Source of the DNA: Dehalococcoidia bacterium
GTDB lineage: Bacteria; Chloroflexota; Dehalococcoidia; Lucifugimonadales; QGNO01
Assembly: GCA_965249115.1 (NCBI GenBank)
Contig: CBDFLI010000002.1
Coordinates: 2,106,636-2,170,635, forward strand
Length of the DNA stretch: 64,000 bases
Direction: 5' to 3'
Shown here: in pieces, positions 3,641-64,000 of the stretch
Layout of the letters: each line of letters begins with the position of its first letter
How positions within the stretch are numbered: position 1 is the first letter of the stretch
Translations under genes and position numbers: made by a program
The notes under the pieces: model-generated
What the model saw: the letters and a program-made list of their open reading frames with translations, nothing else
The model's database searches: none
What the model was told of the DNA's origin: nothing

Positions 3641-4165
3641 TTAAAGGCCTTCAGGGAGGTCTACCACCATACGGCCGCCTTCCACGTCCACCTCTTTCAC
3701 CACGTCTGCCAGGGCCGGGACCAGGGTCTCCTTTTCCGGTCCCTTCACCACGTAAACATCGTTGGCGCCGGTCTCCAGGACGTCGGTTATTACCCCAAGC
3801 TCCATGCCGGAGGCGGTGACCACCAGCATGTCCAGCAGCTGGTAGTGATAGTAGGTATCTGGTTGTGGAGGAGGAACGTCCTTCTCCGTGACGTAGATGG
3901 ACTCGCCTTGCAAAGTCTCCGCCGCGGTGCGTGAGTTCACTTCGCGGAACTTGATCAGGAGGTCACGGCGGACCGCACGCTTGGTGTCAACGCGATAGAC
4001 GGAACCACGGATGTGGACCACGTCGCCGGGAGCGAGCCTTTGGGGGATATCGGAAACAACGTTTACCCGGACCTCGCCCTGCATGCCTGCGGGACCGCGG
4101 ACATGACCGACCAGAACTAGGAGAGGTGCTTCATGGTTGCCCTGTGGACCGGGCTTCGGAGTCAT
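3641..4165 (-). CDS. rimM: 16S rRNA processing protein RimM
   Basis: VGHVRGPAGMQGEV, YYHYQLLDMLV, LETGANDVYVV, LVPALADVVKEVD; downstream of rpsP-khpA. Confidence 0.95.
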   Translation of the reverse strand: MTPKPGPQGNHEAPLLVLVGHVRGPAGMQGEVRVNVVSDIPQRLAPGDVVHIRGSVYRVDTKRAVRRDLLIKFREVNSRTAAETLQGESIYVTEKDVPPPQPDTYYHYQLLDMLVVTASGMELGVITDVLETGANDVYVVKGPEKETLVPALADVVKEVDVEGGRMVVDLPEGL

Positions 4166-4184
4166 GGAGAGGTGCGGGAACTGC

Positions 4185-4412
4185 TCACACTATTTCCAGA
4201 GTGGCCCGGGTGCCCTCTTTTACCGCCGCTACCCGGAGCAACACTCTCATGGCCTGGGCGACCCGGCCCTCGCGGCCGATGATCTTTCCCTTGTCTTCCT
4301 CCGCCACTTCCAGGCGGAACACCACCCTGTCCTCTTCCACCACTTCCGTGACCTTGACTTCCTCAGGTTTACTGGCAAGGGACTTGGCGATGTATTCGAC
4401 TAGTTCCCGCAT
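4185..4412 (-). CDS. khpA: KH-domain RNA-binding protein KhpA
   Basis: MRELVEYIAKSLASKPEEV...DKGKIIGREGRVAQAMR; conserved position between rpsP and rimM. Confidence 0.93.
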   Translation of the reverse strand: MRELVEYIAKSLASKPEEVKVTEVVEEDRVVFRLEVAEEDKGKIIGREGRVAQAMRVLLRVAAVKEGTRATLEIV

Positions 4413-4418
4413 CTTGGA

Positions 4419-4667
4419 CTAGTCCTCTCCGGCGGATTCCCTGTTGCGAATAATCCGCTGTACCGGTTCAGAAGGCTGGGCGCCTTTACTGATCCAGTCC
4501 TTTACCTTCTCGTCATCAAGGACAATGGTCGGAGGATCGGTCATGGGGTCGTAGTGGCCCACCTGGTCCACGAAGGAACCGTCCCGCGGGGCGCGCGAGT
4601 CGGCCACCACAATCCTGTAGGACGGGTGCTTTTTGGCACCGACTCTCCGCAACCGTATCCGTAACAT
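4419..4667 (-). CDS. rpsP: 30S ribosomal protein S16
   Basis: [30 protein letters not shown]...GAQPSEPV; start at ATG 4667 behind GGAAAGGA. Confidence 0.98.
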
Positions 4668-14893: not shown

Positions 14894-14943
14894 GTTGATG
14901 CCTACACTGAGGCCAAGACACTCTTCATACGATCCGTGGAGGC
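14894..14943 (+). repeat. GrpB-like 3'-end fragment, copy 1
   Basis: Encodes VDAYTEAKTLFIRSVEA; 43/50 nt identical to 15713..15762. Confidence 0.7.
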
Positions 14944-15617: not shown

Positions 15618-15762
15618 CACCTTATTCCCCGTGACTACCTCCGAGCCCATCCCGACACGGCAAGGGAGTACCTGGTCCTCAGGAGGAGTTCACCGCAGCT
15701 TCCGGCGACTACGTTGATGCCTACGTCGAGGCCAAGACACCCCTCATACGGTCTGTGGAGGC
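15618..15762 (+). pseudogene. GrpB/UPF0157 family C-terminal remnant with frameshift (copy 2)
   Basis: HLIPRDYLRAHPDTAREYLVLR, then after a one-base shift in AGGAGGAG: EFTAASGDYVDAYVEAKTPLIRSVEA. Matches the GrpB tail pattern HLxFRDYLRxHP...AYxxAK. Confidence 0.7.
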
Positions 15763-22099: not shown

Positions 22100-22113
22100 T
22101 GGAATATCCTCCT

Positions 22114-22175
22114 TTAGAACGCCGGTCTGGTCAGGACCGATGGGTCTACTTGCCGTCGGTGGCGCTGCCTTTTTT
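22114..22175 (-). pseudogene. Relic 3' end of a second dihydropyrimidinase paralogue
   Basis: KGSATDGK / VDPSVLTRPAF* parallels LGSPTDSK-LIPRK-IDPSVLTGPVF* of the adjacent gene; nucleotide similarity to 22181-22216. Confidence 0.7.
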
Positions 22176-22180
22176 AAACT

Positions 22181-23650
22181 CTAAAACACCGGTCCGGTCA
22201 GGACCGACGGGTCTATCTTACGCGGTATGAGCTTGCTGTCCGTTGGACTTCCCAGAAAATTTCTCTCCTCCAGCATCACCTTCCCGCGCAATAATACGGA
22301 GGTGGGCCACCCTGCGACCTCCCAGCCCACCCAGGGGTTGTAGTCCTTCAGGTGCAGGTCATCCATGCTCAGCCGTTTCTTCACCGAGGGGTCTATGATT
22401 GTGATGTCGGCGTCACTGCCCGCGGCGATGGCGCCTTTGCGAGGATAGAAGCCCAGAAGCTTGGCGGCGTTGGTGGAGGTGATCTCGGCGTACCGCTCCA
22501 GGGACATACCCTGTTTGACCACGCCCTCCGTGTAGGTGACGCCCATGCGTATCTCTATGCCGATGTTGCCACCCTGGGCGTCGGCCACGGTCTTGCCCGC
22601 TGTCTTGCCCTCGTATGTCGTGGCGATGCTGTCGGTGGCGACAAAGGCCAGGTCTCCGTTGCGCAGGCCTTCCCATAGGCGGAGACGGTCCTCCTCGTAT
22701 TTCTGGGAAGGGTAGGTGTGGTATATGGGCCCGCCGGGCTCTTTGTAGTTCTCGCTGGTAAAGGAGCAGTAGAGGAGAATGGTCTCTCCGTACACCGGCA
22801 GCCCTCTCTTGCGTGCCTCGGCAATGGCGTCCACCCCCTCCTTAGCGCTGGTATGGACAATGTACATCGCAGCCCCGGCGTGTTCCGCTATGCGTATGAC
22901 CCGTCTTACTGAGATGTCCTCCGATAGCTTGGAGCGGATGCGCGGGATGTTGTGAAAGTCCCAAAGCCCGCGCTCCCTGGCCATCTCGTAGTTGTACCTG
23001 ACTATCTCGTCGTCCTCGGCGTGGATGGCGGCGACGCCACCGTGCCTGGCCAACTGCTCCATCACCTCTGAGACCCGCCCCATGTCTATCATTGGGCCTG
23101 GTCGGACCGGTGTCTGGGGGGTCTGCCCTCTGACCGGTATATCCTCCTGGCGCAGTGGAGGACTCAGTATGAACAGCTTGAAGCTGGGGAACCCGTCGGC
23201 GATGAGGTCTTTAATCCCCGCCATGCCCTCGGGTGTGACGGCGCCCCTGTAGTTGCAGTGGGCGGAGTAGTCGGTATAGGTCTGGCCCTGAAAGTTAGCC
23301 ATGTGCTCTTGCACGGCACGCACCACGTCCGACTGCTCCGGTGTGGCGGCGGTGGCGAAGTCCACTATTGTGGTAGTGCCTCCCCAGATGGCGGCCCTGG
23401 ACTGCTCCACCGACCCTGCGTTCTCGGCGAACCACGTGTTGGGTATGTGGGGGAACCCTATATGAGCGTGGGCCTCAATACCACCGGGCACAACTATCTT
23501 CCCGGTGGCGTCCAGAGTTTTTTTCGTCTCCGGGGTGGTCGTTCCCGGCATCGCCAGGGCCACGGTCCGTTCGCCCTGTATCCAGACGTCCCACTCTCCC
23601 ACCCCTGTCGGGGTTACCACTCGACCGCCTTTGATCACAAGGTCCAGCAT
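22181..23650 (-). CDS. Dihydropyrimidinase/hydantoinase-like cyclic amidohydrolase (paralogue 1)
   Basis: MLDLVIKGG, GGIEAHAH, GGTTTIVDFA, SFKLF, IHAED, STNAAKLLGFYPRKGAIAAGSDAD. Confidence 0.9.
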   Translation of the reverse strand: MLDLVIKGGRVVTPTGVGEWDVWIQGERTVALAMPGTTTPETKKTLDATGKIVVPGGIEAHAHIGFPHIPNTWFAENAGSVEQSRAAIWGGTTTIVDFATAATPEQSDVVRAVQEHMANFQGQTYTDYSAHCNYRGAVTPEGMAGIKDLIADGFPSFKLFILSPPLRQEDIPVRGQTPQTPVRPGPMIDMGRVSEVMEQLARHGGVAAIHAEDDEIVRYNYEMARERGLWDFHNIPRIRSKLSEDISVRRVIRIAEHAGAAMYIVHTSAKEGVDAIAEARKRGLPVYGETILLYCSFTSENYKEPGGPIYHTYPSQKYEEDRLRLWEGLRNGDLAFVATDSIATTYEGKTAGKTVADAQGGNIGIEIRMGVTYTEGVVKQGMSLERYAEITSTNAAKLLGFYPRKGAIAAGSDADITIIDPSVKKRLSMDDLHLKDYNPWVGWEVAGWPTSVLLRGKVMLEERNFLGSPTDSKLIPRKIDPSVLTGPVF

Positions 23651-54671: not shown

Positions 54672-54773
54672 TCTGAGTGTCCTGGGCTATGAAAAGATGC
54701 GGCTATTGTAGCGTGAACCTTATGATAGTGCACCGCCTAAACCCCACCTATGTCATTCTTGTATCTTCCCCCT

Positions 54774-54935
54774 GTCATTCTGAACCAAAGCCCTAAGAGT
54801 AGCGAAGGGGAAGTGAAGAATCTGGAGTGGGGCCATCGTTTGTTTAGAATGACCTCAGGTGATTAAACCCGTTCGTGGTGAGCGGCTGTGGCCCCCCCCC
54901 CGTTCGTGGTGAGCTTGTCGAACCATACGAACGGG
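54774..54935. repeat. Cluster of REP-like palindromic elements
   Basis: GTCATTCT...GAAGAATCT...AGAATGAC element (54774-54853); truncated CCCGTTCGTGGTGAGC copy, then CCCGTTCGT-GGTGAGCTTGTCGAACCAT-ACGAACGGG (54899-54935). Confidence 0.7.
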
Positions 54936-57171: not shown

Positions 57172-58557
57172 ATGAGCAGTGGCGTCACCCCGGTGAACGA
57201 CACAATAACGCGGACCTTTGATGACCTTGAACGGCGGCAACTGGAGATCTACGCCAGGGAGCTCCAGGAGCATTTTGACGAAGAACACCGTTTGCGGCAG
57301 GAGCTTGAAAAGCGCAATAGAAACCTGGAACAGCGGCTACGTGAAATCGCTGCAATAGAAGGAATGAATAAGACCATATGGCGACAGAACGAGAAACTTT
57401 CTCAAATTCACTCGCTGGCGCCGGCCACACACAACCAGACAGGGGACGCGGTTGCGGAGCTGTCCCTTACCCTGGTGTTGCAAAGAATAGTTGACCTGAG
57501 CCGCGATCTGGTGCCGGCGATGCACGGCGGCCTGATGATAGTGGACAACGGAAGGCGGTCATCCTTCGTCACATCCGGGCTCAACCCCACGGAGAAGTCG
57601 GCTTTGGAGGCCTATCTCAGGGACAGCGGAATTTCTGGGATCCTGGGCAATGAACTGAAGCCTACAGCGCAAATAGAAAGAGGCTCACCCCCTCGGGACA
57701 ACGAGACTCCATCGGACAAATTCCAAGTAACCGGTTTGCTGGGTATACCGGTGATTAACAGGGGCAAACACCTGGGGAACCTGTATCTCCTGAACAAGCC
57801 GGGTGACGATCCGTTCACCCAGGAAGAGTCAAGTCTGATGTCCATGTTTGCCACACAGGCGGCGGTGGCCATAGAGAACGCTCAAAACTACCGAAATATC
57901 CAGGTCCAGTCCATTGTGGAGGAGCGGGACCGTATAGGGAGAGACCTGCACGACAATACCATCCAGTCTCTCTACGCCCTGGGGTTGGAGATGGAAGACT
58001 GCGCCGAGGTTGCCGTTGACACGCCCCGGGAAGTCCAGACCCGTTTGCGACGGTCTGTGGGCAGGATCAATGAAGTTATCTCCAGTATCAGGACCTACGT
58101 GCTGGACCTGCGGCCCGATGACCTGGCCGAACGGAAGCTCCATGAGCATATGGAAGAGTTGGTGGAAAGTTTCAAGGGCGCTGGGATTTCCCGGCTTGAA
58201 CTGCTTTGGGACGTGCAGCAGGCTTTGGTCCTTTCTCCCAATCAGATATCTCACTTCATAGCCATAGCAAGAGAGGGGCTGGCCAACGTTGTGAAGCACG
58301 CCGGAGCCACCTCCGCCGTCCTCGGCTTCTCGACCGACGGCACATATTTTAAGCTATGGATAGAAGACAACGGCGTCGGGTTCGATACCAGGGCATCTGT
58401 TGGCAACCGGCACCAGGGGCTCAGGAACATACATGATAGAGTCCAAGCCCTTGGAGGGACCCTTCAGGTCCAAAGCAGGCCCGGGCAAATGACACGGCTG
58501 GATATAACCGCGCCCATTGGGCGTCACGCTCCGGTAACCGTCAGGAGTGGGCAATGA
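57172..58557 (+). CDS. Cytoplasmic GAF + HisKA_3 sensor kinase (DosS/NarX class)
   Basis: N-terminal coiled coil, GAF (GNLYL...FATQAAVAIENA), ERDRIGRDLHD, EGLANVVKHA, DNGVGF, GLRNIHDR. Confidence 0.92.
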   Translation: MSSGVTPVNDTITRTFDDLERRQLEIYARELQEHFDEEHRLRQELEKRNRNLEQRLREIAAIEGMNKTIWRQNEKLSQIHSLAPATHNQTGDAVAELSLTLVLQRIVDLSRDLVPAMHGGLMIVDNGRRSSFVTSGLNPTEKSALEAYLRDSGISGILGNELKPTAQIERGSPPRDNETPSDKFQVTGLLGIPVINRGKHLGNLYLLNKPGDDPFTQEESSLMSMFATQAAVAIENAQNYRNIQVQSIVEERDRIGRDLHDNTIQSLYALGLEMEDCAEVAVDTPREVQTRLRRSVGRINEVISSIRTYVLDLRPDDLAERKLHEHMEELVESFKGAGISRLELLWDVQQALVLSPNQISHFIAIAREGLANVVKHAGATSAVLGFSTDGTYFKLWIEDNGVGFDTRASVGNRHQGLRNIHDRVQALGGTLQVQSRPGQMTRLDITAPIGRHAPVTVRSGQ

Positions 58558-59198
58558 GGATATTGATAGTCGATGACCATGAAATTGTGCGTAACGGGCT
58601 GACCCTTCTCTTCAATCGGCAGAAGGGCTTTGACATTGTTGGCGAGGCTGGCTCGGTTTCCGAAGCGGTCCGGGTGGCCGCGGCTACCTCCCCGGACCTC
58701 GTGATAATGGACGTAAGGCTCCCCGACGGCACCGGGATTGAGGCGTGCCGGGATATCAGGTCGGCTAATCCCGAGACCAAAGTCGTGATGCTCACGTCCT
58801 ACTCGGACGATAAAGCGCTGTTTGACTCCATCATGGCGGGTGCCAGCGCCTACTTCCTCAAGCAGGTGGAAAGCAAAGCACTGGTCGCCGCCGTACAGCG
58901 GGTTGCCAACGGAGAGTCCCTCCTTGATCCGGCCGTTACGCAAAGGGTCCTCAACAAGGTGAAAGTCCTCATTTCAGACCCTTCTGCCGACAAACAGTCC
59001 GGACCCTCCCCCCAGGAGCAGGAAGTCCTGGCCCTCATCGCGGAGGGAAAGACCAACCGAGAGATCGGTCAGGAGATGTACCTCAGCGAGAAGACGGTCA
59101 AGAACTACGTGAGCAACATCCTGGACAAATTCAACCTGAGCAGGCGCTCCGAAGCGGCGGCCTACTACGTCAGGTCACAGGTTGGGGACAAGTCCTAA
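58554..59198 (+). CDS. NarL/DevR-type response regulator (REC + LuxR HTH)
   Basis: IVDDHEIVR, MDVRLPDG, MLTSY, LKQ, GKTNREIG...LSEKTVKNYVSNI; ATGA overlap with the kinase. Confidence 0.95.
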   Translation: MRILIVDDHEIVRNGLTLLFNRQKGFDIVGEAGSVSEAVRVAAATSPDLVIMDVRLPDGTGIEACRDIRSANPETKVVMLTSYSDDKALFDSIMAGASAYFLKQVESKALVAAVQRVANGESLLDPAVTQRVLNKVKVLISDPSADKQSGPSPQEQEVLALIAEGKTNREIGQEMYLSEKTVKNYVSNILDKFNLSRRSEAAAYYVRSQVGDKS

Positions 59199-59212
59199 AG
59201 TCTTACGCTGAC
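59138..59212 (+). repeat. 75-bp direct repeat, copy 1 (3' end of the response-regulator gene)
   Basis: First 44 nt identical to 62161-62204; overall 3 substitutions + 1 indel versus 62161..62234. Confidence 0.9.
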
Positions 59213-59474
59213 CAGCAGCCGTCATCTCCCTTTACTTCCGCCCGTACGTCAAGGCATGGACAGGCGTCAGGTCGTGAATGAAAGCCACGTCGGTAAGCCC
59301 TGCTGGCCATTGCGGGTGGCGGGCTTTCTCAGGTGGCCGGGCTGCTCCACCTAGCTCCTCCACCAGGGCCTGAAAAGCCTCAGGCCATAAGTCCCTTGTC
59401 CTCAAGCATCAGTCTGATCTGACCTCCGTCAAACCCGGAGCGAGGTCCCAGAAGTTCCAATCTGGTTCTGTCAG

Positions 59475-60041
59475 TTACTCTTGGACGTTCAGGTGGGAAG
59501 AGAAATTGACTGCCCTCAGAGAGTGTCGAGTAGGGGAGAGTTCTTCCGACATCTTGGCAAGCTGCTCCAGTTGCTCTCTGGGAGCGCTGCTCTTGACGTA
59601 GTAAGTAGCTCGGATATCCTGAAAGCCAGCGGCTACAGCCCCGGGCTCCGGCAGGCCCAGCATACCCTGGAGATCAATGTCGCCCTCGACCTCTATCCTC
59701 AGCCCTTCGATAGAAATACCCATACTCGCTCCATAAGTCGCCCAGCCTGATGCCAGGCAGTGACCCAAGGCTGAGAGTAGCACCTCCACCGAGGATGGGC
59801 CTTTGTCGGTTCCCAGGAGCTCCTGGGGGTGGTCTCCTACGATTGTGAAGGCCTTTTTGCGGGACGTGTCGTTTATAGCCCCGCCCATGGAGAACGGCTT
59901 GACTACGGCTTCGTTATGGAAGCCGCTCCTCCATATAGTGGTCGCATAAAAAGCAGCCTTAGCGACCTGGGGTTCTGCCTTCACCATCTCCACCATGTCC
60001 TGAATCCCCTGGACATTCAATCCATTAACATCCGTTGCCAT
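59475..60041 (-). CDS. OsmC-like protein
   Basis: VNGLNV, IVGDHPQELLGTDKGPSSVEVLLSALGHCL, VEGDIDLQGMLG, GFQDIR, SPT; RBS GGAGG. Confidence 0.85.
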   Translation of the reverse strand: MATDVNGLNVQGIQDMVEMVKAEPQVAKAAFYATTIWRSGFHNEAVVKPFSMGGAINDTSRKKAFTIVGDHPQELLGTDKGPSSVEVLLSALGHCLASGWATYGASMGISIEGLRIEVEGDIDLQGMLGLPEPGAVAAGFQDIRATYYVKSSAPREQLEQLAKMSEELSPTRHSLRAVNFSSHLNVQE

Positions 60042-60096
60042 TGTGGCACCTCCGTCTAAGATTGTCGCCATTATCCAGGGGATAAAGGCCCTCATC

Positions 60097-60114
60097 ATCT
60101 GACGAACGTCGGAT
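60097..60114. promoter_or_regulatory. Candidate activator site upstream of the OsmC-like gene
   Basis: ATCTGACG-AA-CGTCGGAT (one mismatch), just upstream of the expected -35 for a GATAAT -10 at 60070-60075 (minus strand). Confidence 0.45.
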
Positions 60115-60251
60115 TTAAGTGGACAGAAATTCCCAGAAGCCGGCCCTTTCTGTGAAAACGACAGGCCTGTCGATGTAATACAGGGCTTTGCTGAGAAATT
60201 GGATAGGAAATAGCTCTAACGGGAGAGAGGCTTCTTGAACGAGACGCCTGC

Positions 60252-61862
60252 TTAGGGCAGCAAGTCGTGTTCCACAGCAAAGAGAGCGGCCGCAGCCCGA
60301 CTCGACACACCAATCTTGCTGTAGATATGTTCCAAATGGGACCGGACAGTTCCTTCAGCTATGAAGAGAGCCCCAGCCACTTGCCGCCTATTGAGGCCTT
60401 TAGCTATGAGACGGAGTACTTCAACTTCTCGATCAGTAAGCCGGGCAGGCCATTCTTGTTGGCGGGTCCTCTGCCTGGGAGAGCTATCTACTCCACTCAG
60501 GTCCTCCGTCAGAGCCTGGAAAGCGTCGGGAGAGAGCCTACTTCCTACTTCTTGGCGCATCACATTGACCGCCTGGTCTAAATCGAGACCTGGGTTCTCA
60601 GGCGCATCATGAGTAAGCTCATCGAAGCGGTCGGCCACAGCGATAATTCGTGCCCCTAGCGGTATCTCGGAGCCCTTGATCCCACGATAATAGCCACGGC
60701 CGTCCATCTCCTCGTGATGTGCTGCCACGAGGGGAATAAGCGGCTCCAGAGCAGGGACTTTGGACAAGACTCGCTCCGAGTGGTAGGGGTGGAGTCGCAC
60801 TTGCTCTCGCTCGGCTTCGGTCAGGGTGTCCTGGGACTTGTTCAGCAGGAAGGACGGTACGGCCACAACCCCAATATCATGCACTAACGCCGCTTGATAG
60901 ATGATGGTTACCTGGGATCCTGTCAGCCCCATCCTCTGAGCGATGCGCTCTGCTAGATTGGCTATTCGGCGCGAACGGCCAGCCCAGAAAGGCAATTTCA
61001 GGTCGGCATAGTCGGCCATAGCCAGCGCCACGTCAACCACTTTCCCTTCTCCCATATACCGATAGGGAGACCGCTCTGGCTCCATGAAAATCACGCTGTC
61101 CCACACCCTTTCCTCTTCCAGTCCTCTCCAAAAGCTGTCCTTTTGGGCCACAGTGAGGAAGGCATCCACTACCGATGGATCGAAGGCTTTGCCGCGCCGT
61201 GCCAGGGCCACGTGCTTCGCGGCTTCACGACCGTCCACTCGATGGAAGACCTCCATGAAGCTCGTCATCAGCACGATACGAGAGATGATAGAGATGGCGT
61301 CGCTCTTGATACCGTACGGCATCCCGTGGCCGTCCCATTGCTCAAAAACTTGCATCAGCGCGTCCTGGACTGTTTCGGGCATACCTAATCGCTGAGCAAT
61401 GCGTGAGGCTACCTGGCAGGTGCTCTCAAAGCCTTCTTTCATGAACTTCCGCCCCTTTATCAGGAAGTCCAGAATATGAGTAGCACGGGTTGGAAAGGAT
61501 GCTCCAGCCGCTACATACTTGAAAAGCCATGAGGCCATATCCAGAGGGTTGCGGGAATTGCGGAAGAACTGGAGATCCCGCTTGGCAGCGAGTTCGTCCA
61601 CAAGCCAAGAACTGGCTAACTGGCTGGTCCAGGTAGTGCAGCCGGCGTCCTTCAACAACTCGGCGTAGTACAGGTCGGTGCGTTGGTTTAGAGGAAGCTC
61701 CATCTCCTGAGCGATGTGCATGCCAATGTAGCAGGAGCGCGCGCCGTGCTCCATATCCAACCCCATTGCCAGGTCGCTTGCCAGGGAGAAGGCCCCTAAC
61801 AAGTCGACTGTTCGAATTAGGTTCTCTTCTGGCGCTGTCGGCGGAGGTTCTGACATCAGCAT
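60252..61862 (-). CDS. Tandem HD/HD-GYP-like domain + C-terminal LuxR HTH regulator
   Basis: LLKDAGC, LVHDIG, HPYHSE, HHEEMDGRGYYRG, RIIAVAD; LTDREVEVLRLIAKG...TVRSHLEHIYSKIG. Confidence 0.9.
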   Translation of the reverse strand: MLMSEPPPTAPEENLIRTVDLLGAFSLASDLAMGLDMEHGARSCYIGMHIAQEMELPLNQRTDLYYAELLKDAGCTTWTSQLASSWLVDELAAKRDLQFFRNSRNPLDMASWLFKYVAAGASFPTRATHILDFLIKGRKFMKEGFESTCQVASRIAQRLGMPETVQDALMQVFEQWDGHGMPYGIKSDAISIISRIVLMTSFMEVFHRVDGREAAKHVALARRGKAFDPSVVDAFLTVAQKDSFWRGLEEERVWDSVIFMEPERSPYRYMGEGKVVDVALAMADYADLKLPFWAGRSRRIANLAERIAQRMGLTGSQVTIIYQAALVHDIGVVAVPSFLLNKSQDTLTEAEREQVRLHPYHSERVLSKVPALEPLIPLVAAHHEEMDGRGYYRGIKGSEIPLGARIIAVADRFDELTHDAPENPGLDLDQAVNVMRQEVGSRLSPDAFQALTEDLSGVDSSPRQRTRQQEWPARLTDREVEVLRLIAKGLNRRQVAGALFIAEGTVRSHLEHIYSKIGVSSRAAAALFAVEHDLLP

Positions 61863-62160
61863 GATCCTTACCGGAAGTAGCTCGTGAACCTTTCATGGTG
61901 AGTATGATCACCACCCCTCATGAACGTAATTATGCGGGCATTGCAGACGTTTGTGAAGCGGGAGTTCAATCTCACGGATGCGCCTCTAAGGGTAGTTCCC
62001 AAATTCTTGCGGCCCGAATCTAGCGCCCGGGCTCAGGCAACTGTTGGCACAGCGCTGCCATATGCGTATTTGCGTGCATTATCCACGCCTGACCTATCGG
62101 AAAATAGAGCCACATTCGACTACGACCGTCCATACTTTGGGTCTGTTCAGATCACCGCTG

Positions 62161-62234
62161 GAGCAGGCGCTCCGAAGCGGCGGCCTACTACGTCAGGTCA
62201 CAGGCCGGGGACGAGTCCTAAGTCTTACGCTGAC
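62161..62234 (+). repeat. 75-bp direct repeat, copy 2
   Basis: Encodes SRRSEAAAYYVRSQAGDES*, versus SRRSEAAAYYVRSQVGDKS* in the intact gene. Confidence 0.9.
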
Positions 62235-62580
62235 AAGCGCCCGGCAGGCCCTTGTAACTATGACGCGCGCCTGGGCCTCTTCGATGAGCCAGTAGCCGAT
62301 CTCGCATGAATGGTTGGGGAAGTTCAAGTCATGGAGACCAATGCTGCCTACCAGGGAGTCCTGGTACATGATGAGGAGTGGATACTCGTGACCTTCCGAA
62401 CCAGGCTCAAGGCGGTTCTCCAACCAGCGCCGCTCGTCTTCCACTGTGCGCATGGCATACACCCAGGGTAGCCAGCGACCCAGGTGCTCCCGGTTGGAGT
62501 CAAGGAGCGCAAACCCCTTCGGCGTCAGACAGCGAAGGCCGTCTCAGGACTATCTCGTCGTCGATTCTGATGGTGGTCAC
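62235..62580 (-). pseudogene. RimJ/RimL-type GNAT acetyltransferase, frameshifted and 3'-truncated
   Basis: VTTIRIDDEIVLRRPSLSDAEG, one extra base near 62515, then FALLDSNREHLGRWLPWV...LVGSIGL...EIGYWL...TRACRALV, ending exactly at repeat copy 2. Confidence 0.8.
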
Positions 62581-62616: not shown

Positions 62617-62994
62617 CTAGGCCTTCTCCCAGTCGGAAGCCATTAGCAGGCCATCTACAGGTACCACGCGCTCGTTCAGGGAGTCAACCGCTAGGCCGAG
62701 TTCTTCCAGGGATACCGCGCCCAAGACTGGCTCAGATCCCTCTTGGCCGAAGATAACAAGGGTGATCTCGCTGCTGCCATTGACCCGAATCCAGGTTCTT
62801 CCGACATCCCGCTCCACTCGTCTGCCGTCAGCTAGAATAAAGGTACGCTGAGTGTGTGGAGATACCCCCAGGTCTCGCAGGACCGTGGCAGGGATCTGGC
62901 TATAGCTGGCTCCCGTGTCAACTAGCGCGTGTACTTCATGGTACCTGGAACCAGATGAATCGCCGATTTCTATATTGATACGAAATATTCCCAT
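62617..62994 (-). CDS. Clan AA retropepsin-like aspartic protease
   Basis: ALVDTGAS, LADGR, PVLGAVSLEELGLAVD; starts 4 nt after the ispG stop. Confidence 0.85.
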   Translation of the reverse strand: MGIFRINIEIGDSSGSRYHEVHALVDTGASYSQIPATVLRDLGVSPHTQRTFILADGRRVERDVGRTWIRVNGSSEITLVIFGQEGSEPVLGAVSLEELGLAVDSLNERVVPVDGLLMASDWEKA

Positions 62995-62998
62995 GCCC

Positions 62999-64000
62999 CT
63001 AAACCTTCGCCACTTCCTCCATGAGGGCTGTGAGCATCTCGGCTTCGGGCACCACGCGTACTTTCTGGCCCTTGCGGAATATGACCGCACGGCCCGCGCC
63101 GGCGGCTATGCCCACGTCGGCGTCCTTGGCCTCGCCCGGCCCGTTGACCTCGCACCCCATGACCGCAACCTTGATGTTCTTGTCCACGTTCTTGATAAGT
63201 GCGTCCACCGCGTTGGAGAGCTTTATCACGTCCACGTCCGCCCTCCCGCACGACGGACACGCCACCAGGGTGGTCCCCTTCTGGCGCAGGTTCAGCGACT
63301 TCAGGATGTCGTACCCGGCGGCCACCTCTTCCCGGGAGTCGTCGCTCAACGACACCCTGATGGTGTCGCCGACGCCATCGTACAGCAGGACTCCCAGGCC
63401 AATGGCGCTGCGTATGCTGCCCGACTTGGCCGTCCCCGACTCTGTGATGCCCAGGTGCAGGGGATAGGGCACCAACTCCGCCAGCCTCCGGTACGCCTCC
63501 ACAGTCGTCGGAACGTCAAAGGCCTTCATGGAGATCTTGATCAGGTCAAAGTCCAGGTCCTCTAGTATCCCTATCTCCCATAGCGCCGTGTCCAGCATAT
63601 GGTCGACTATGGAGTACTCACCCTCGGCCTCGTCACCCGCCTTGGGCAGCAGGTTCACGCCGTCGGCAAGGCGACGCATGGCCCGCGTCCTGCCTATGCT
63701 CCCCACGGGTGGAAGGCTGCCGAAGTTCACGCCTATGCGGATGGGAATCTGACGCTCTTTGGCCGTCTGTACAACCTGCTTCACACGTTCAGGGTCGCGG
63801 ATGTTGCCCGGATTCAGGCGCAGGCAGTCCACGCCGCCCGCTATGGCCTCCAGGGCTAGCTGGTAGTGGAAGTGGATATCCGCCACCAGGGGAATGGATA
63901 TCCGTTTCTTAATCTCCGGCAGCGCCTTTGCGGCTTCCATGTCCGGCACGGCGCACCTTATAATCTCGCACCCCACCTCCTCCAGTCCCTTTATCTGGAC
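62999..64000 (-). CDS. ispG: HMBPP synthase IspG (5' end outside window)
   Basis: PLVADIHF, RLNPGNI, IRIGVNFGSL, YPLHLGITESG, GVGDTIRVSL, CPSCGR, VAVMGCEVNGPGE. Confidence 0.98.
   Translation of the reverse strand, partial: VQIKGLEEVGCEIIRCAVPDMEAAKALPEIKKRISIPLVADIHFHYQLALEAIAGGVDCLRLNPGNIRDPERVKQVVQTAKERQIPIRIGVNFGSLPPVGSIGRTRAMRRLADGVNLLPKAGDEAEGEYSIVDHMLDTALWEIGILEDLDFDLIKISMKAFDVPTTVEAYRRLAELVPYPLHLGITESGTAKSGSIRSAIGLGVLLYDGVGDTIRVSLSDDSREEVAAGYDILKSLNLRQKGTTLVACPSCGRADVDVIKLSNAVDALIKNVDKNIKVAVMGCEVNGPGEAKDADVGIAAGAGRAVIFRKGQKVRVVPEAEMLTALMEEVAKV

Follow-up and report, generated by a model that had tools for sequence, protein, structure and literature searches.

The stretch of DNA analysed here (the window, 64,000 nucleotides (nt) from a Dehalococcoidia bacterium) contains an intact gene for a NarL/LuxR-type response regulator whose 3' end is repeated 3 kb downstream, directly against a truncated GNAT acetyltransferase pseudogene. 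Between the two copies lies a block with a conserved pair of genes, one for an HD-GYP-like phosphohydrolase fused to a LuxR helix-turn-helix (HD-GYP/LuxR, in short HD-LuxR) and one for an OsmC-like protein. An original prediction, made from the letters of the window, had described this block as a 3-kb island integrated at the end of the regulator gene. We find that the block is a fixed recombination scar, an integrase-less gene-tail duplication, and not a fresh mobile island. How it arose can be stated with less assurance. Tentatively, and with somewhat less than even confidence, we favour an old duplicative insertion of Campbell type at the regulator's tail, of which the repeat would be the scar and which has since been eroded by deletions. 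Related loci are cited below by their L numbers, and positions elsewhere in the genome by C1 and C2 coordinates.

The repeated gene tail, announced in the original prediction as about 60 nt of coding and 14 nt of downstream sequence, is real and slightly longer than stated, comprising 61 nt and 18 nt, respectively (Table 1). The two copies form a direct repeat with 74 of 79 alignment columns identical. Identity is complete over the leading 44 nt; there follow a TT/CC double substitution, an A/G substitution, an insertion or deletion of 1 nt directly past the stop codon and, as a fifth difference that the prediction had not listed, a C/A substitution at +14 downstream of the stop. The 44-mer occurs exactly twice in the window (0 occurrences expected from 100 shuffles), and an 87-nt stretch with the repeat has just these two real matches across the 2.7-Mb genome, with no third copy. 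A degenerate form of the 44-mer gave 0 matches in JGI metagenome contigs and 0 in IMG/VR. Folding of the repeat is no better than that of shuffled sequence (z = -0.12), and no known RNA or tRNA was found in the repeat or in the patches of the block. Nor does the locus look like an integron cassette with attC-type inverted repeats, IntI and attI, since there is no unusual fold, no motif common to the seven loci described below and no integrase nearby.

Homology between the copies stops on both sides of the repeat. Upstream of copy 2 it is at background level only (58900-59137 aligned with 61923-62160), a blast search of 61960-62170 against the genome returned the self match only, and downstream copy 2 runs into the GNAT pseudogene. 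A remnant of a whole-gene or tandem duplication, which should have left upstream homology in 61900-62160 and which had been named as the outcome that would overturn the insertion claim, was therefore rejected, and the claim stands in this respect; a two-deletion scenario leading to the same picture found no supporting evidence.

The five differences between the copies could be polarised with the help of regulator orthologues and of L047, a 1.4-kb metagenome contig from another study's assembly that is 89-91% identical to the window. Two of the changes arose in copy 1 and three in copy 2. Those in copy 1 replace Ala by Val and Glu by Lys in the variable C-terminal tail, as judged against copy 2, L047 and the orthologues. 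The distal tail copy of L047, 97.5% identical to copy 1 of the window, has the orthologue state at four of the five positions and agrees at +14 with copy 1. The five differences are thus younger than the duplication, which was perfect over all 79 nt. The identical core followed by a diverged arm is a later accident and no sign of a diverged, element-borne gene end; the substitutions arose after the event and do not mark such an end.

The GNAT pseudogene is cut exactly at the second copy, as had been noticed. Its C-terminal third is gone, the remnant ends at 62239, and a 2-nt frameshift lies near 62520. L047 has the gene order of the window (aspartyl protease, GNAT remnant, regulator-tail copy, HD-LuxR upstream region, HD-LuxR start), and its junctions are identical at 62160/62161 and 62238/62239. 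Its GNAT shows the same truncation point and an in-frame deletion of 168 nt of its own, and is without the frameshift. Since the two remnants have the truncation alone in common, GNAT probably died with or just before the formation of the copy-2 junction. Since L047 has the same copy-2 junctions, the event predates a sequence divergence of about 10%. Being common to a relative this far diverged, the event counts as an old and fixed one.

The 2.9 kb between the copies is a patchwork in which relics of one module (B) are followed by a second, apparently working module (A), joined by two illegitimate deletions. Beside the regulator lies the end of a methyltransferase gene, which meets a fragment of an HD-GYP/LuxR gene (allele B) at a deletion junction with a shared CGAC (59289-59292). 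The allele B fragment is 94% identical over 101 nt to L033 (7325-7425) and 69% identical to the intact copy of the genome itself. At the second deletion junction (59384-59393) there is a short homology of about 10 nt, GGCCTATGGC in the relatives, and the L033 gene has GGCCTATGGC at the point matching this junction. The OsmC gene of module A follows with its 3' untranslated end, which keeps only the left arm of a terminator hairpin that is perfect and complete (GGGGCCTATGGC...GCCATAGGCCCC) in L031, L033, L034 and L035. The encoded protein belongs to the OsmC/Ohr family (PF02566, 56.5 bits against a cut-off of 27.5). The predicted HD-GYP protein of allele A matches HD_5 with 177 bits and has the HD (VHDIG); its second signature, HHEEMDGRGYY, reads GYY in place of the usual GYP. 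This protein has hundreds of full-length relatives, the closest with 85% identity.

At no fewer than 11 related loci, HD-GYP/LuxR and OsmC occur as a conserved pair, with the OsmC gene 3' of the HD-LuxR gene in L028-L031, L033-L038, L040 and L041. Together with about 100 nt on each side, the pair is 74-87% identical in many other Dehalococcoidia genomes, in unrelated contexts. L038 has the order HD-LuxR, OsmC, methyltransferase intact, again in another context, and the relics of module B are those of a unit in this order. Of the predicted island, the duplicative gene-tail layout and the conserved HD-GYP/LuxR and OsmC pair are borne out; as a single island it dissolves into a mosaic of two modules. 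The OsmC gene, named in the original prediction as the target of the LuxR-type regulator, is a putative target.

Upstream of the intact HD-LuxR gene we found a promoter-like site (61929-61957, minus strand, TTCACA-17-CATAAT) within a motif that is conserved upstream of every HD-LuxR orthologue. A near-palindromic block at 62035-62076 (GGCA..GGCACAGCGCTGCC), common to L039 and L047, could serve as an operator. The final 55-85 nt of the upstream region before copy 2 have a homologue in L047 only. Between the window and L047 the best-conserved stretch is 62035-62240, 205 nt of non-coding DNA that include copy 2 (7 differences, about 97% identity; for comparison, about 80% just left of the block and 86-93% in the adjoining coding or pseudogene DNA). 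It contains a 35-codon frame (62114-62221, plus strand) ending in the regulator's C-terminal helix, which starts with ATT in the window and with ATG in L047 and in which three of three substitutions are synonymous. At the other loci the distal tail copy has a frameshift, a stop or no start codon, and the small open reading frame (ORF) is a weak lead only. The stretch could be a regulatory block, a small ORF or a chance pattern.

Elsewhere, the HD-LuxR/OsmC module has no repeats around it in L028 or L031, and no fragment of the regulator tail was found in L028-L042. Its copies in L028, L029, L031, L039 and L042 are often flanked by DDE transposase genes, and the module is split or interrupted in L031, L039 and L042. 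The genome itself has a second HD-GYP/LuxR paralogue at C2:173277-174853 (about 51% identity), seemingly split by a frameshift into two tblastn pieces. A 66-aa GerE ORF past OsmC in L028 was considered as a homologue of the frame at 59232-59405 and rejected, as it is an unrelated MalT-type C-terminus.

The regulator has an N-terminal receiver and a C-terminal GerE/LuxR helix-turn-helix, both above the Pfam cut-offs, as is characteristic of the NarL/FixJ (LuxR-type) response regulators. It closes a block of receiver, GAF histidine kinase and regulator genes, and orthologues with 76-95% identity occur in the same three-gene block in L021-L027, L070 and L071. The sequence downstream of the orthologues varies: an ABC permease follows in L021 and L023, other regulators in L025 and L026 and unrelated sequence in L027. 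In L022 the sequence past the regulator gene matches several dispersed genomic sites. L070 and L071 are members of the regulator's own 90% cluster (about 90% nucleotide identity) and carry a full-length methyltransferase gene convergent with the regulator, 32-33 nt past its stop; in the window, the spacer from the regulator stop to the methyltransferase stop is 33 nt. Homology of both loci to the window continues through the spacer into the methyltransferase remnant, which is collinear at about 90% with their full-length 348-aa gene. Since L070 and L071 have this flank in full length, the neighbourhood of regulator and methyltransferase at copy 1 is the native arrangement of the clade. The assumption that the DNA beside copy 1 is foreign has thus been refuted. 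Deletions have affected the relatives as well: OsmC is deleted at the same point in L070 and L071, L070 retains just the last 150 nt of HD-LuxR, and L027 looks like a further deletion that left the methyltransferase stop region only. At the place of the window's B/A junction, L070 encodes a Pro/Thr-rich protein of 203 aa (3916-4527, minus strand) with a hydrophobic C-terminal stretch (from translation). This gene of L070 shows that modules B and A were once separated by other genes.

The absence of an integrase, already remarked on in the original prediction, was confirmed. Proteins encoded in 56.7-63.1 kb contain no recombinase domain, and genome-wide matches to PF00589 and PF00239 do not fall within the window (C2:2106636-2170635) but at least 34 kb away, and the closest of them, genes for large serine recombinases, lie some 34 kb beyond the right-hand edge. 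No recombinase was found in L047, L070 and L071 either. The locus has flanking repeats (59138-59216 and 62161-62238) as a site-specific integrative element would, but the defining trait of such an element, a tyrosine or serine recombinase, was found neither inside nor beside it, nor in L047, L070 or L071.

The layout is not confined to the regulator. Self-comparison of the genome revealed at least six other loci (Table 1) with an intact gene whose last 54-126 nt recur 0.5-3.3 kb further on, with 0.5-3.2 kb of ordinary cargo between the copies and no recombinase. These repeats are 89-99% identical and end -2 to +34 nt relative to the stop codon. The genes concerned are purH, a gene of unknown function, a collagen-like gene, an SDR gene, a gene for a large ATPase-type regulator and a 967-aa gene. 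As cargo we found a small cupredoxin-like gene, a kinase and a NarL-type regulator at purH, two surface-repeat genes at the gene of unknown function, DAHP synthase at the collagen-like gene, a methyltransferase at the SDR gene and a hydrolase at the ATPase-type regulator. At two of the six loci the two tail copies end in different stop codons, and the distal copies are decaying. Inspection by eye of the seven loci revealed no motif common to the ends of repeats or cargo. Of 19 non-trivial short direct repeats, about 7 belong to the gene-tail type, against about 4% expected, by a rough estimate, with random breakpoints. The recurrence, the tie to the stop codon and the lack of a common site favour a systematic, duplicative insertion that is independent of sequence and survives only where the gene stays whole. 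At purH, a comparison of synteny with relatives of genus level is uninformative on insertion, because neither the cargo nor the gene downstream is shared. The window has two shorter direct repeats, each 86% identical, whose existence alone was confirmed (14894-14943 / 15713-15762 and 22112-22148 / 22179-22215). Short repeats with CTGTCATTCTGAG-type sequence, which probably belong to a family of dispersed intergenic repeats, occur at 54772-54823 of the window, at C2:2188147-2188198 and also at C1:158173 / 168422.

Table 1. Features of the locus (window coordinates) and positions of the other gene-tail duplications (genome coordinates)
Feature	Coordinates	Strand	Remarks
NarL/LuxR-type response regulator, 214 aa, intact	58554..59198	+	Response_reg 1.1e-27, GerE 2.8e-17
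Repeat copy 1	59138..59216	+	regulator gene's final 61 nt (stop included) and 18 nt 3'
Spacer remainder, 15 nt	59217..59231		collinear with L070, L071; about 10/14 positions match the post-methyltransferase-stop sequence of L038
Methyltransferase remnant, last 19 codons and stop (DVAFIHDLTPVHALTYGRK, then stop)	59232..59292	-	79% identical to L038 9437-9505
Allele B fragment of HD-GYP/LuxR gene, residues ~441-477, cut just before helix-turn-helix	59289..59393	-	BLASTP E 2e-9 against intact gene
OsmC gene 3' untranslated end, left arm of operon terminator hairpin only	59384..59474	-	comparison with L031, L033, L034, L035
OsmC-like gene	59475..60098	-	OsmC 3.9e-15
Intact HD-GYP-like phosphohydrolase fused to LuxR helix-turn-helix, allele A, 536 aa	60252..61862	-	HD_5 3.1e-52, GerE 2.6e-17
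HD-LuxR operon upstream region	61863..62160		promoter-like site, L039-shared block, end without homologues except L047
Repeat copy 2	62161..62238	+	78 nt, displaced regulator tail, non-coding, three derived changes
GNAT acetyltransferase pseudogene	62239..62580	-	Acetyltransf_3 6.2e-10, profile positions 32-106 of 138
Context: small retropepsin-like aspartyl protease gene (62617-62994), ispG (62999 onward)	62617..64000	-	conserved core genes
Tail-duplication locus	C2 2089419-2089522 / 2092674-2092777		
Tail-duplication locus	C2 1400847-1400972 / 1403415-1403540		
Tail-duplication locus	C2 823204-823292 / 824824-824911		
Tail-duplication locus	C1 332704-332757 / 333707-333760		
Tail-duplication locus	C2 1971094-1971155 / 1971961-1972022		
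Tail-duplication locus	C1 87823-87903 / 88379-88459		

Concerning the origin of the repeat, the Campbell-type insertion that we favour would have started from an earlier, empty arrangement with the regulator tail directly against GNAT. A DNA circle with a copy of the regulator's last 61 nt and the adjoining 18 nt would have recombined once with the chromosomal tail, by which the regulator was kept whole, the cargo of the circle came to lie behind it and the second tail copy ended up at the far end, against an already truncated GNAT. The block would then have held two tandem HD-GYP/LuxR and OsmC modules, B (with the methyltransferase) beside the regulator and A further out, and most of module B would later have been removed by short-homology deletions. 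The resulting structure would now be fixed and probably immobile, while the regulator and the module A operon, with its own promoter-like site, still look functional. An identity of 79 nt is long enough for RecA-type recombination. Within the insertion reading, somewhat more than half of our confidence goes to a crossover through the cell's homologous recombination across this identity, with no dedicated integrase.

The insertion is favoured by a repeat that begins inside the gene, ends 18 nt past its stop and leaves the gene whole. Moreover, the originally perfect 79 nt lie above the range of integrase attachment (att) sites, the identity of which is usually 8-60 bp (PMC5704250), and no recombinase is present in the block or in the fuller versions beside copy 1 in L070 and L071. 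A weak pointer in the same direction is that L038 and L071 cease to be homologous about 13 nt beyond the methyltransferase stop, no more than 1-2 nt from where the repeat ends on the right; this boundary match to L038 amounts to about 10 of 14 bases, which tells against giving it weight. Further points count against the insertion. The search for an empty site that had been suggested with the original prediction found none among the relatives, and every regulator contig with readable downstream DNA has other content there. The flank of copy 1 (spacer and methyltransferase) matches the closest relatives, and a purely local origin of copy 2 fits this locus, taken alone, equally well. The model also presupposes an older deletion by which the regulator tail became joined to the interior of GNAT, and the loss of DNA between modules B and A could have taken a recombinase with it.

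This last point leads to a serious rival explanation, possible if on the unlikely side, by which the block descends from one or two decayed site-specific elements similar to cis-mobilizable elements (CIMEs). The HD-LuxR/OsmC modules would have entered through a tyrosine or serine recombinase at an att site overlapping the 3' end of the regulator, accreted in tandem and lost the integrase; the repeats would be attL and attR, perhaps usable in trans. Elements that enter the 3' ends of genes and restore them have this layout in its classical form (PMC5704250), and the resemblance to 3'-end integration seen in the original prediction is genuine, with an intact gene, a block and a displaced tail copy. 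Tandem accretion followed by decay to integrase-less CIMEs is documented for the integrative conjugative and mobilizable elements (ICE/IME) of Streptococcus (PMC5704250). Here, two related modules lie in tandem in the same orientation, and the DNA demonstrably deleted between them, where L070 has other genes, could have held the integrase. The genome encodes at least eight large serine and about four intact tyrosine recombinases, and tRNA-tail repeats are also found around islands in it, one with an integrase fragment. However, neither end of the block, the usual place of an integrase, has a recombinase in the window, L070, L071 or L047, and the 79-nt identity exceeds typical att identities. 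The at least six other loci are likewise without recombinase or common motif, so that separate losses of enzymes or many enzymes acting in trans would be needed. In addition, neither the HD-LuxR protein nor the module has relatives on the viral contigs of IMG/VR.

Alternatively, nothing was inserted at all. A tandem duplication from 59138 with a deletion, or a template switch during replication, would have put the 79 nt of gene tail at a junction that also removed the 3' end of GNAT. We regard such a local rearrangement as unlikely, even though much of the locus agrees with it: the adjacency of regulator and methyltransferase is common to L070 and L071, with a remnant in L027, which makes the flank of copy 1 ancestral; illegitimate deletions are numerous (59289-59292, 59384-59393, OsmC in L070/L071, L027, 168 nt in the L047 GNAT); and the truncation, as the only feature shared by the GNAT remnants of the window and L047, is what one would expect if the placing of copy 2 and the cutting of GNAT happened at one stroke. 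Yet random breakpoints fail to explain a repeat that spans exactly a gene tail and ends 18 nt past the stop. They also fail to explain at least six similar loci, where by our own estimate about 0.5 would be expected by chance among about 12 other short repeats. No further sequence is duplicated on either side of copy 2, and at least two independent steps would be required. That the repeat is an artefact of an assembly chaining two strain variants deserves mention because the genome is a metagenome-assembled genome, and it is extremely improbable. L047, assembled in another study, carries both copy-2 junctions, by which misassembly, the second objection raised in advance against the insertion claim, is excluded; the side of copy 1 is confirmed by L070 and L071, and the copies differ by lineage-specific mutations.

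Beyond this locus, the gene-tail repeats (here, at purH, at the SDR gene and at four or more others) might be the working joints of a recombinase-free exchange of cassettes, whereby blocks between 50-130-nt copies of a conserved gene's tail would loop out by ordinary homologous recombination, pass between cells and re-enter at the same tail in strains without them. We consider this quite unlikely at present. If true, SAR202-type Dehalococcoidia would possess a general way of acquiring and shuffling flexible genes that does not depend on sequence. The locus marks the DNA behind this two-component system of a SAR202-type bacterium as a hot spot where genes are gained and decay, and where a conserved HD-GYP/LuxR and OsmC operon was reshuffled. 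Its wider value is that of a thoroughly dissected example of a layout found at seven or more unrelated genes of this genome. Should the layout reflect homology-driven gene addition, it would help to explain the flexible gene content of abundant, poorly cultured marine Chloroflexota without classical mobile elements; should it reflect decayed integrase elements, it would be ordinary.

Insertion into the 3' end of a protein-coding gene is known from prophage e14 and phage 21, which integrate in icd of Escherichia coli, bring a replacement end that keeps the protein whole and leave a pseudo-end downstream. These phages carry their own integrase, phage genes and a diverged replacement end, whereas at the regulator both ends started out identical, and phage and integrase genes are lacking. 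Closer to the host are the ssrA-specific islands of Dehalococcoides, which reportedly target the tmRNA gene and carry their own site-specific integrase. They are of the same class, lie behind the 3' end of a conserved gene, are bounded by repeats of this end and often stand in tandem; our locus differs from them in its protein-coding target, its 79-nt repeat and the lack of a recombinase. Campbell-type integration of non-replicating circles duplicates by a single crossover a short segment around the insert, and the gene remains intact only if this segment has the gene end. This is a laboratory phenomenon, employed for gene targeting by homologous recombination, and a natural source of circles in these bacteria is hypothetical.

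With CIMEs and tandem accretion (PMC5704250) the locus has in common the signs of two related tandem units and the intact target gene. It differs from them in that no related, integrase-bearing element is known for the site, the repeat measures 79 nt as against 8-60 bp (PMC5704250), genes for conjugation or mobilisation are absent, the host is a SAR202-type Dehalococcoidia bacterium and the cargo beside the gene is also the native neighbour in relatives. The tycheposons of Prochlorococcus and their remnants (10.1101/2020.12.28.424599) use tRNA ends and hallmark integrases, whereas the loci described here involve protein-coding tails with no hallmark gene and no site common to them. The likeness between the two is that both are marine, with blocks of cargo split by partial copies of gene ends and with degenerate remnants from repeated integration at one site (10.1101/2020.12.28.424599).

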